The notes under the pieces were generated by a model. It was not told the DNA's origin. It saw nothing but the letters and a program-made list of their open reading frames with translations, and did no database searches. DNA of 64,000 nucleotides, from NCBI GenBank assembly GCA_039815185.1, contig JBCBZT010000003.1:32001-96000 (forward strand), in the 5' to 3' direction. How positions within the stretch are numbered: the stretch's first letter is position 1; every line of letters begins with the position of its first letter. The stretch comes from Cyanobacteria bacterium P01_A01_bin.123. GTDB lineage: Bacteria; Cyanobacteriota; Cyanobacteriia; Phormidesmidales; Phormidesmidaceae. Made by a program: the position numbers and the translations under genes. Shown here in pieces: positions 54,364-57,382 of this stretch.

Positions 54364-54669
54364 GTCTTGCATTAAGAGGCATCTGATTCTAAACCAAGTT
54401 AGGGGTTTCGTTCTATCTTGTGCCTTTCGATTCTTCATTGCGGCTCTCCTAGTTGCGTCCTAGCCAGATGAAGACTGAGGTTCTAGAAACCGAATTTCTG
54501 GCCAGAGAATCACCGCCATGATGACGCTTGATCAAAGCAACCCGGTTTCTGACTTATAGCGCTGGCCAGCTTGCTTAAGGCACCGAGTATCGCTGGGATG
54601 CTGAATCTACAGGCAATCTGGCTCGCAGCCGCGTCCTATCCGGACTGGCGACTGCTATAGCGTTGCTGT

Positions 54670-55530
54670 TTAGGCGGCGGCTAACTTGTGGGCTATCGGT
54701 TGGGCTGTGGGAATTTGACGACCCACGGCGATCGCGATCGCGCTTAATTCCCCAATTAGGCCTGTCATAGTTTCTAGTGACAGGGCTTGGCGGGCATCAG
54801 ACACGGAAGCTTCTGGTACGGGGTGACATTCGATGATTAGGCCGTCTGCCCCAGCCGCGATCGCGGCTTTGGCTAAATTAGGGACTAATTCCCGCTTGCC
54901 TGCGGCGTGGCTGGGGTCGACGATCACGGGCAAGTGAGTCAAGTGTTTCAGGGCGACGACAGCACCCAGATCAAGCACGTTGCGGGTGTAGGTATCGAAG
55001 CTGCGGATACCCCGTTCACAGAGGATAACGTTGGGATTACCGTGAGCCATGACGTATTCGGCTGCCATGACAAACTCTTCCACCGTGGCGGCGAGTCCGC
55101 GCTTTAGCAGAATGGGTTTCTGGACGGTTCCCAGGGCTTTGAGCAGATCAAAGTTTTGCATATTGCGGCTGCCTACTTGTAAGACATCTGCATGGGCCGC
55201 GATCGCCTTAATTTGGTCGACTGCCATCACTTCTGTCACGACCGGAACCGAGTAGCGGCGACGCATGTGATCTAAAACTTCAAGTCCTGCTTGCCCCATG
55301 CCCTGAAAAGAGTAGGGTGAGGTACGCGGCTTGAACGCCCCGCCTCGAATGCCCTGCACTGGGGCTACGGTCAAGTGTTCGGCCACGGTTTCCATCTGTG
55401 CGAGGCTTTCCACCGTGCAGGGGCCACCCACAATCCAAAGATCTTTGCCGCCCACAGTAATGCCATAGGGGAGTTCGATCACGCTTTGGGGCTGGGCCTC
55501 AGATTTGAGCGTGAGTTTTGCGTCTTTCAT
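54670..55530 (-). CDS. aroF: DAHP synthase, type I-beta, without N-terminal regulatory domain
   Basis: [56 protein letters not shown]. Confidence 0.93.
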
Positions 55531-55591: not shown

Positions 55592-55624
55592 AAAAAAAGC
55601 CCGGAGCCTAGGGCTCCGGGCTTT
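55592..55624 (-). terminator. Attenuator terminator 2 (proximal to aroF)
   Basis: Minus strand AAAGCCCGGAGCC-CTA-GGCTCCGGGCTTT-TTTT. Confidence 0.9.
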
Positions 55625-55645
55625 GGCAAACCATAGGTCAGCCGA

Positions 55646-55708
55646 TCACCCAGAGCCTATCAGGGTGTAAAAGTAAAAATCAAAAAGCCAAGGGTTAGAG
55701 AGGGGCAT
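55646..55708 (-). CDS. Leader peptide 2, MPLSNPWLFDFYFYTLIGSG
   Basis: ATG...TGA, 20 aa, with W7, F9, F11, Y12, F13, Y14; last codons complementary to the 5' arm of terminator 2. Confidence 0.8.
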   Translation of the reverse strand: MPLSNPWLFDFYFYTLIGSG

Positions 55709-55739
55709 GGGGTTAAAACTAGATTGGGTTACAGGGATT

Positions 55740-55776
55740 AAAAAAACAAAAACCGCAGTGCCTTTGGCCTGCGGTT
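55740..55776 (-). terminator. Attenuator terminator 1
   Basis: Minus strand AACCGCAG-GCCAAAGGCA-CTGCGGTT-TTTGTTTTTTT. Confidence 0.85.
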
Positions 55777-55804
55777 CACTCAAGGTGCCATGCGAAAGCT
55801 GGAC

Positions 55805-55864
55805 TCACCCCCAGTGAACCGGAATAAAGTGCCAAAAATAAAACTTGTGGGCGATCGCGCTCAT
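55805..55864 (-). CDS. Leader peptide 1, MSAIAHKFYFWHFIPVHWG
   Basis: ATG...TGA, 19 aa, FYFWHF run; late codons complementary to the 5' arm of terminator 1. Confidence 0.8.
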   Translation of the reverse strand: MSAIAHKFYFWHFIPVHWG

Positions 55865-55904
55865 GGCAAAAATTCTTGCGAGGAAAATTCCTAACCTGTC
55901 TCGA

Positions 55905-55933
55905 ATCCTAGCAGGGCAAATTGGTAGCGTCAA
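55905..55933 (-). promoter_or_regulatory. sigma70-type promoter of the aroF leader
   Basis: TTGACG-17 nt-TAGGAT with a TGn extended -10. Confidence 0.75.
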
Positions 55934-56631: not shown

Positions 56632-56946
56632 CTAGCTAACCGTCTTCGCACGGGAATTGGTGACAACCAACTCAAAATCCCAGTTGGGAATCTGGTTCAC
56701 CCGCTCTGCTATTCGTCGTAAATCTTCAGAACCGTTGAGGGTAAGATTCTCCCGTGTTCGTACTTCAACAGCAACGGTTCGCCCTTCGGCCTTTGCGACT
56801 AGATCAAGCGGGTGTTTCGATAACACTAGGGGTAGATCTTCAGCACCTGGATAAACCGTAACGTCGTACCCATGGCGACGATATTCGCGGGCCAATCGCA
56901 TGACACGACGGTGCTCTAGGGGAGTTTGGTGCGCTCTATAACTCAT
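56632..56946 (-). CDS. Small PD-(D/E)XK restriction-endonuclease-fold protein
   Basis: YRRHGYDV...PLDLVAK...AVEVRT pattern. Confidence 0.65.
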   Translation of the reverse strand: MSYRAHQTPLEHRRVMRLAREYRRHGYDVTVYPGAEDLPLVLSKHPLDLVAKAEGRTVAVEVRTRENLTLNGSEDLRRIAERVNQIPNWDFELVVTNSRAKTVS

Positions 56947-56965
56947 GGATAACCTAACCAGGAAC

Positions 56966-57382
56966 TCAAGCTAGCTCAGCCGGATCAGGAGCTCCCTCTA
57001 CCTTAACATAGAGAAATTCGTCTCCCTTACAGAACCCTTCTGCAAGCACCAGAGACATGCCCTTAATGCGGAAAGACCCATTCAGATTCCGGCGACGACT
57101 GACGAAATCTGTGATCTGATAATCATCTACATATACAACGCCATTGAGCGCATCCCGGACTGGCTTGACAATATTGTCGCTGTCGGGGACTGTCTCTTCG
57201 CCGTGCGGAGCGTCGTAGTAGTGGGTAATCGTGACTTTAACAGCCTCCCCCAAGGGCTGACTGCTAGGCCAGTTGACTTCGGCAGTGTGGCGCACTTTAC
57301 TTTTCCAATCCCGTAAACGTTTTTTATCTTTCGTTTGATGGGAAATGGGTTTGCCAATAACAATAAACTCGAAAGGAAGCAC
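56966..57382 (-). CDS. rusA: RusA-family crossover junction endonuclease
   Basis: GKPIS, PDSDNIVKPVRDALNGVVYVDDYQI. Confidence 0.82.
   Translation of the reverse strand: MLPFEFIVIGKPISHQTKDKKRLRDWKSKVRHTAEVNWPSSQPLGEAVKVTITHYYDAPHGEETVPDSDNIVKPVRDALNGVVYVDDYQITDFVSRRRNLNGSFRIKGMSLVLAEGFCKGDEFLYVKVEGAPDPAELA

Follow-up and report, generated by a model that had tools for sequence, protein, structure and literature searches.

The minus strand of the window, i.e., of the whole stretch of 64,000 nucleotides analysed here, very probably carries two ribosome-mediated transcription attenuators in tandem ahead of an accessory, short aroF gene. Tandem ribosome-mediated attenuation is supported by the conservation of the two units, the frame constraint on their short upstream open reading frames (uORFs), the covariation of terminators and antiterminators, the geometry of the ribosome footprint and a published terminated transcript in a relative.

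Organization of the aroF leader

The elements of the locus are given below in the order of transcription, with their window coordinates.

55905 to 55933, minus strand: promoter-like TTGACG-17-TAGGAT of the sigma70 type (sequence scan)
55805 to 55864, minus strand: uORF1, 19 aa, MSAIAHKFYFWHFIPVHWG and stop, with the control-codon cluster F8-F13 at 55843-55826
55772 to 55821, minus strand: antiterminator 1, pairing 55821-55813 (Pro-Val-His-Trp codons) with 55780-55772 (folding)
55802 to 55820, minus strand: small hairpin covering the uORF1 stop codon, regarded as optional (GGTTCAC / GTGAGTC), then TTT
55740 to 55777, minus strand: intrinsic terminator 1, hairpin and interrupted U tract (fold -18.5 kcal/mol)
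55646 to 55708, minus strand: uORF2, 20 aa, MPLSNPWLFDFYFYTLIGSG and stop, with the control-codon cluster W7-Y14 at 55690-55667
55612 to 55657, minus strand: antiterminator 2, pairing 55657-55648 with 55621-55612 (folding)
55592 to 55624, minus strand: intrinsic terminator 2, 55624-55596 and U run (terminator scan, folding)
54670 to 55530, minus strand: aroF, encoding a 286-aa type Ibeta DAHP synthase, the regulated gene (profile searches)

The promoter, both uORFs and both terminators had been placed on the minus strand by a first-pass annotation, and all of them were recovered at these coordinates from the sequence, the terminator scan and folding. The promoter-like element matches the consensus at 9 of 12 positions and its transcription start is predicted near 55898; since the region holds 4 promoter-like sites where 3.2 are expected, this match is weak when taken alone. 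Terminator 1, which is followed by TTTTTGTTTTTTT, was not called by a simple terminator scan of the region, whereas terminator 2 was. Antiterminator 1 masks the lower 5' arm of terminator 1, with an inner helix between its two strands and -28.9 kcal/mol for the whole hairpin. In antiterminator 2 (hairpin of -28.4 kcal/mol), the 5' strand is made of the Gly-Ser-Gly codons and the T of the uORF2 stop, and it masks the greater part of the 5' arm of this unit's terminator. Both antiterminators fold and covary, in agreement with the proposal that late uORF codons are complementary to the 5' arm of the following terminator. The shared geometry that had been ascribed to the two units holds for their common logic but not for their exact dimensions, the antiterminator spacing being different.

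Folding of the 370-nt leader was better than that of 100 out of 100 shuffled sequences (z -3.18). Moreover, when 17,875 intergenic ORFs of 10-35 codons from this genome were screened, exactly two, uORF1 and uORF2, combined at least 5 F/Y/W in 8 codons with a terminator at or below -12 kcal/mol. Regarding the surroundings of the locus, a RusA-family ORF and an ORF with an AHJR-like restriction-endonuclease fold are located upstream on the same strand (56632-57382), and an element of about 105 nt with around 190 BLAST matches in the genome, probably a miniature mobile or REP-like repeat, lies just 3' of aroF (54553-54660).

The presumed target gene encodes a short DAHP synthase

The aroF product scored 344 bits against TIGR01361 (cut-off 267.75). 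Its match to PRK08673 begins only at profile position 69, its alignment with the 338-aa solved enzymes begins only at residue 75, and its best PDB matches, 1vs1 and 1zco (262-276-aa enzymes), align end to end, which indicates that the N-terminal domain is lacking: the catalytic barrel is there and the N-terminal ACT/chorismate-mutase domain is absent. In longer type Ibeta enzymes, this N-terminal domain is the carrier of feedback control. Judged from its sequence, the product would be a short DAHP synthase devoid of allosteric control. A second DAHP synthase of 355 aa, which we read as type Ialpha, is encoded elsewhere in this genome (G000:C76), and the P0001 tblastn search of this genome returned no match to it.

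A survey of 401 genomes from across the phylum gave a match in 354, and 64 carry the short-aroF clade, delimited by an E value below 1e-115 (the next best match is at 5e-89). This clade is separate from the long form (SH-aLRT 100 in a tree of 55 of the entries), and short aroF is an accessory copy in 64 of the 64 genomes; at least two DAHP synthase matches were found in 60 of them, and another PF00793 enzyme in the remaining 4, including the present genome.

Conservation of the tandem upstream of short aroF

The leaders of 144 short-clade loci (64 from the 401-genome survey, the window included, and the best 80 of 514, two sets that may overlap in species) were compared with those of 26 long-form loci. 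With an ORF-plus-terminator detector, two or three units were found in 57/63 and 70/76 of the short loci for which 500 nt or more of upstream sequence was available, against none in the 26 long-form leaders. With a detector based on pairing, both units were found in 129 loci after removal of one mis-assignment (L022). Once three loci cut by contig ends were set aside (L090, L101, L121), both units were present in 134 of the 141 usable short-aroF loci of the 64-genome set and the best 80 of 514, namely the 129 above and 5 that were rescued, L099 and L144 by the ORF detector and L022, L113 and L145 by the ORF detector or by eye. The comparison of orthologous upstream regions that the first-pass annotation had called for gave conserved F/Y/W-rich uORFs in 134/141 loci and stems that covary, with 15-28 compensatory events per helix.

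Only one unit was present in 5 of the 141 loci (unit 1 in L016 and L062, unit 2 in L057, L058 and L079), suggesting that each unit works alone. The remaining two loci, L011 (interrupted) and L132 (420 nt available), retain no more than a single or partial unit 2, with unrelated sequence ahead of it. In L011, a 375-aa ORF located about 270-1500 nt upstream of aroF splits uORF2 and parts aroF from unit 1 and the promoter; it has a C-terminal CxxC/HxCxCxC motif and we take it to be TnpB-like. Clustering of the 129 leaders at 90% identity leaves 83 groups, at 80% 62 and at 70% 50, and related leaders remain non-independent. Two records of Obscuribacterales, non-photosynthetic relatives (L113 and L145), have a short aroF with both units and are nested among cyanobacterial sequences. 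L126, labelled Actinomycetota, also nests among cyanobacterial short aroF, and its label may be a binning error. A metagenome pattern scan, in which 121 loci among the matches listed were inspected, gave one true unit, a tandem before aroF (L285); two other listed loci were terminator-like without aromatic codons and the rest chance-like, a result that does not bound the taxonomic range. The possibility that unit 2 is a duplicate of unit 1 was also considered, and profile cross-searches, which did not exceed shuffled sequences except for the mis-assigned L022, did not show a common origin.

Coding signature of the uORFs

Among 127 distinct homologs of uORF1, 123 have an in-frame ATG, compared with 0 and 0 for the two other frames; for uORF2 the in-frame count is 106 of 131 (118 when GTG and TTG are included), compared with 23 and 3. 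A stop codon follows within 18 nt in 127/127 sequences of unit 1 and 124/131 of unit 2. Phe, Tyr and Trp are all there in 120 of 125 uORF1 peptides and 123 of 127 uORF2 peptides, with mean F/Y/W contents of 3.2/2.2/1.2 and 3.9/2.5/1.6 per peptide, respectively, so the clustering of all three aromatic end products described at first for this locus extends to its homologs. Nostocaceae-like loci (L008, L010, L141) have an AGGAG site for uORF2 directly after the U tract of terminator 1, a ribosome-binding site that is absent at this place in the window. A -1 frameshift at the U-rich run was rejected, as inspection by eye of the window gave no XXXYYYZ heptamer and no downstream frame.

The codon usage of the uORFs bears on a first alternative, namely that they report the general speed of translation or its coupling to transcription (nitrogen starvation, ppGpp, ribosome stress) and not the aromatic supply, U-rich codons acting partly as pause signals. 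The Phe codons are indeed skewed to TTT (TTT:TTC 356:48 and 397:93 in the two uORFs versus 378:574 in the aroF coding sequences), as this alternative would have it. However, Trp (TGG) occurs in 125/125 uORF1 and 127/127 uORF2 peptides and the Tyr codons TAT and TAC are about equal, which fits a selection on the amino acid and not on U content. We regard this alternative as improbable.

The ends of the uORFs bear on a second one. Their terminal codons are fixed at the nucleotide level (GTT in 127/127; CAC/CGC tracks GTG/GCG), and the C-terminal VH and SG change only along with their pairing partners, which indicates that these ends are conserved as strands of an RNA switch and not as peptide signals. 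The conserved C-terminal VH[RLP][EG] and SG motifs, together with the TGA found at the uORF1 stop position in 124 of 127 sequences, could also be expected from a nascent-peptide arrest similar to that of TnaC, in which an aromatic peptide and the free amino acid would stall the ribosome at the stop codon and set termination. Such an arrest is very unlikely, however, as the conserved residues correspond to invariant codons that are swapped together with their pairing partners (His/Arg, Ser/Pro/Thr), as the peptides vary widely (112 distinct sequences for uORF1 and 116 for uORF2), and as a ribosome held at the stop favours termination, which simple translation explains equally well. The combination of protein-level conservation and free synonymous variation was not found at the uORF ends.

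Covariation and folding of the putative RNA switch

A branch of the aroF tree was counted as a compensatory event if one Watson-Crick pair was replaced along it by a different one through changes at both positions. There were 25 such events for antiterminator 1 (0-7 in slid registers), 15 for terminator 1 (0-2), 25 for antiterminator 2 (0-6) and 28 for terminator 2 (2-5), and the single changes that break a pair amounted to 41, 12, 74 and 45, respectively. As the helix partners were picked by best complementarity, the percentages of pairing are optimistic and the slid controls correct this only in part.

The spacing between the control codons and the antiterminator is constrained in both units. 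In unit 1, the distance from the last aromatic codon to the antiterminator core is 5 nt in 102 of 127 sequences and 8 nt in 22, and the core begins 13 nt ahead of the stop in 120. In unit 2, this distance is 12 nt in 102 of 131 sequences, with the helix starting 3 nt closer to the codon, and the core has its end at the stop codon in 117. In masked folding, a ribosome placed at the stop codon reduced the probability of the antiterminator to 0 in every sequence, whereas a ribosome placed one or two control codons before the last one left it above 0.5 in 96-100% of nascent transcripts. For a stall of unit 1 on the very last aromatic codon with a 9-nt footprint, only 18% of the sequences were above 0.5. 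In the completed leader at equilibrium, the terminator is still favoured in the stalled states (median P 0.59-0.99), and consequently the switch must be kinetic. Without any ribosome, the nascent RNA is predicted to form the antiterminator in 98% of the unit 1 sequences and 88% of those of unit 2, which implies that termination needs a ribosome abreast of the polymerase.

No upstream 1:2 protector was found in either unit, the only candidate being the downstream hairpin over the stop codon in unit 1, which remains paired at 6 positions in 121-127 of the 127 sequences and shows only 2 compensatory events. This hairpin is a possible pause hairpin. A TTT is present at +21 to +25 from the start of the unit 1 antiterminator strand (around 55797 in the window) in 80 of 135 loci and is predicted to be unpaired in 31; elsewhere in the loop, which serves as a purine-rich control, the count is 6 of 767 windows. 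The TTT follows the stop-codon hairpin at 4-6 nt, which resembles the spacing of NusG-dependent pause sites, and the first two Ts of the TTNTTT motif are missing, so that a NusG-type pause in unit 1 is only a lead. According to PMC9963633, NusG pausing is driven by a T-rich non-template strand and cyanobacteria retain the residues that make the contact, which would also suit uORFs responding to translation speed in general.

Promoter and transcripts

A search of 133 loci located a TTGAC-N17-19-YANNNT motif ahead of unit 1 in 121 of them and in none (0 of 133) within the adjoining control window. Between terminator 2 and aroF, a promoter-like motif was detected in only 2 of 136 loci, and the median distance from the end of terminator 2 to the aroF start codon is 56 nt.

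In Nostoc sp. PCC 7120, the predicted sRNA 3692672f is a 150-nt RNA confirmed by Northern blot (blot not shown), with 2268 start-site reads, a 3' end that is a prediction checked by size and not mapped, 27 listed homologs and no peptide annotation in its row of the tables (PMC4734099, Tables S1/S3). According to our comparison, it is the homolog of unit 1: it starts from the orthologous promoter, and its predicted end lies within the hairpin homologous to terminator 1. The named relative L141 has a sequence that matches the mapped PCC 7120 start, located 7 nt downstream of the orthologous -10 box; there, the second primer of the Northern probe falls just past the uORF2 stop, and short aroF then follows. 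By analogy with this relative, aroF would lie downstream of 3692672f in PCC 7120 itself. The main text of PMC4734099 speaks neither of attenuation nor of a leader, aro or trpE, and the paper gives no description of unit 2. Eight hours after nitrogen step-down, the start-site reads of 3692672f rose from 285 to 1402 in the wild type and from 209 to 372 in the hetR mutant (PMC4734099); the rise in the wild type is of the kind expected if the uORFs followed the general state of translation. Public RNA was also searched for L010, and three metatranscriptome runs with 7-10% of its words, available only as contigs, were found; in one of them short contigs fall on pieces of the leader, and such contigs give neither 3' ends nor levels.

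The abundance and the Northern confirmation of the 150-nt RNA (PMC4734099) might also suggest that the leader functions by itself as a gene for a small RNA or a small protein, and that aroF has a promoter of its own. The scarcity of promoter-like motifs in the short interval behind terminator 2 argues against this, as does the covariation of the antiterminators, which would be useless to a stand-alone sRNA, and in this genome the unit is seen only before aroF; we therefore give this possibility hardly any credit. Under tandem attenuation, an orphan sRNA of Nostoc PCC 7120 would be reinterpreted as an attenuated leader, which offers a cheap test in a model strain.

A threonine tandem in the same genome

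An ORF scan revealed a second tandem outside the window.

G000:C19:109317-109650 (L292/L293), same genome: two Thr-rich uORF and terminator units before a short thrS

In each unit, a GGAGGG strand of the Thr-rich uORF pairs with the CCCTCC arm of its own terminator. The thrS product is a 408-aa ThrRS with only the catalytic and anticodon domains and without the editing region; three other ThrRS-like matches are present in this genome. Short thrS occurs in 15 of the 401 genomes searched; two intact units precede it in 12 of these (in one case judged by eye), the second unit is degenerate in 2, and the last genome has just one unit. The match between codon and gene in two unrelated cases, aroF and thrS, supports amino-acid sensing, and the use of ACN codons before thrS, i.e., a codon identity that follows the pathway in both tandems, is at odds with uORFs selected as general speedometers. 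The doubling of the units suggests a recurrent design.

Proposed mechanism

Taken together, these data lead us to propose the following model. RNA polymerase would start near 55898 and, in each unit, the last uORF codons would base-pair with the following terminator's 5' arm while its 3' arm has yet to be transcribed. With charged Phe-, Tyr- and Trp-tRNAs, the ribosome would reach the stop codon and cover the antiterminator strand, so that the terminator would fold and transcription end, yielding products of about 155 nt at terminator 1 and about 305 nt at terminator 2. If one aromatic tRNA were scarce, the ribosome would stall in the aromatic cluster, upstream of the antiterminator strand by 5-8 nt in unit 1 and about 9 nt in unit 2, the antiterminator would form and the polymerase would read on. 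The aroF mRNA would require read-through at both terminators. From the conserved features we infer uORF translation, stalling, the response to aromatic starvation, the terminator 2 product and a multiplicative effect of the two units.

The folding models predict for both units a three-strand design without upstream protector, in which untranslated RNA would read through. For the sensing of pooled aromatic aminoacyl-tRNAs proposed earlier, the term "pooled" is imprecise; going by the codons, a shortage of any one of the aromatic aminoacyl-tRNAs would be expected to act on either unit. As both units share the same F/Y/W mix, the pair repeats one input and cannot combine different ones. A unit that is on by default terminates only if the ribosome arrives in time and should therefore leak; two units in series would square this leak and steepen the response, a doubling that suits an enzyme without a feedback domain.

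A broader reading, which we put forward as tentative and rather doubtful, is that the doubled minimal attenuator is recurrent in cyanobacteria, where it would silence spare, unregulated enzymes, square the leak and use a NusG-type re-coupling pause. The spare copies would be short aroF and the editing-less thrS, each unit being on by default and leaky unless the ribosome catches the polymerase, and the stop-codon hairpin of unit 1 with its TTT pause would re-couple the two machines. If this were true, such leaders would be natural reporters of transcription-translation coupling, which is unsettled in this phylum.

As to tandem attenuation of aroF itself, it suggests a route to the shikimate flux in many filamentous cyanobacteria through an extra enzyme without feedback domain that is controlled at transcription. 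Transcriptional control of a feedback-free DAHP synthase matters for the engineering of aromatic and secondary metabolites, and the leader would be a direct handle on whether ribosomes keep pace with RNA polymerase in cyanobacteria.

Comparison with known systems

Searches of the leader against the Rfam leader families (Trp, Phe, Thr and His leaders) and T-box gave Thr_leader as the best hit, on the terminator only (19.3 bits for a cut-off of 55), and 6 homologous loci gave 0 matches in Rfam. In the full-text literature searched, in which subscription journals are largely not included, no report of a leader-peptide attenuator in cyanobacteria was found; within this literature, the earlier statement that no tandem, mixed-aromatic attenuator is known in cyanobacteria holds. 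Cyanobacteria and aroF are unmentioned in the main text of PMC2965389 and PMC5737381. If confirmed, the tandem would represent classical amino-acid attenuation in a phylum for which these searches gave no report, with an unusual doubled, same-signal, three-strand design. Brenes-Alvarez et al. 2016 filed 3692672f as an sRNA (PMC4734099), whereas it is read here as an attenuated leader.

The closest likeness is the aroR-aroF attenuator of C. glutamicum, first noted in PMC4046766 and described by Neshat et al. 2014, as summarised in PMC11802643, which likewise has mixed aromatic codons (Phe-Tyr-Phe) before a DAHP synthase gene and stalling that raises transcription. It differs in being a single unit of Actinobacteria without Trp codon, against two units with all three aromatics in Cyanobacteria, and its AroF enzyme is itself feedback-inhibited by Tyr and Phe, against an enzyme without regulatory domain here (PMC11802643). 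According to the same summary, Tyr had no effect in aroR. In Acholeplasma, the predicted uORFC-13-1 likewise joins a Phe-containing uORF and an intrinsic terminator before aroF (Brewer et al. 2021, PMC8632094), but as a single unit with 24 representatives, found only in Acholeplasma and environmental sequences.

The E. coli trpL, pheL and pheM(pheST) leaders, summarised in PMC11802643, also rely on control codons and on an antiterminator competing with an intrinsic terminator, the ribosome position being decisive, but each is a single unit for a single amino acid whereas doubled mixed-aromatic units are found here. The attenuation of the trpL/pheL type that had been assigned to the aroF leader is thus upheld for its ribosome-mediated logic but not for its four-segment layout, since the uORF end is itself the antiterminator strand and no upstream protector was found. 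In the four-segment trpL layout, the upstream 1:2 protector causes untranslated RNA to terminate. Here, on the contrary, no such protector was found and the naked RNA is predicted to antiterminate (98% and 88%). Finally, two uORF-based attenuators in one leader also exist in the mgtM/mgtP leader of the Salmonella mgtCBR operon (Lee and Groisman 2012, PMC3641672). There, mgtM and mgtP combine different inputs, whereas the two aroF units carry the same signal, each with its own intrinsic terminator.
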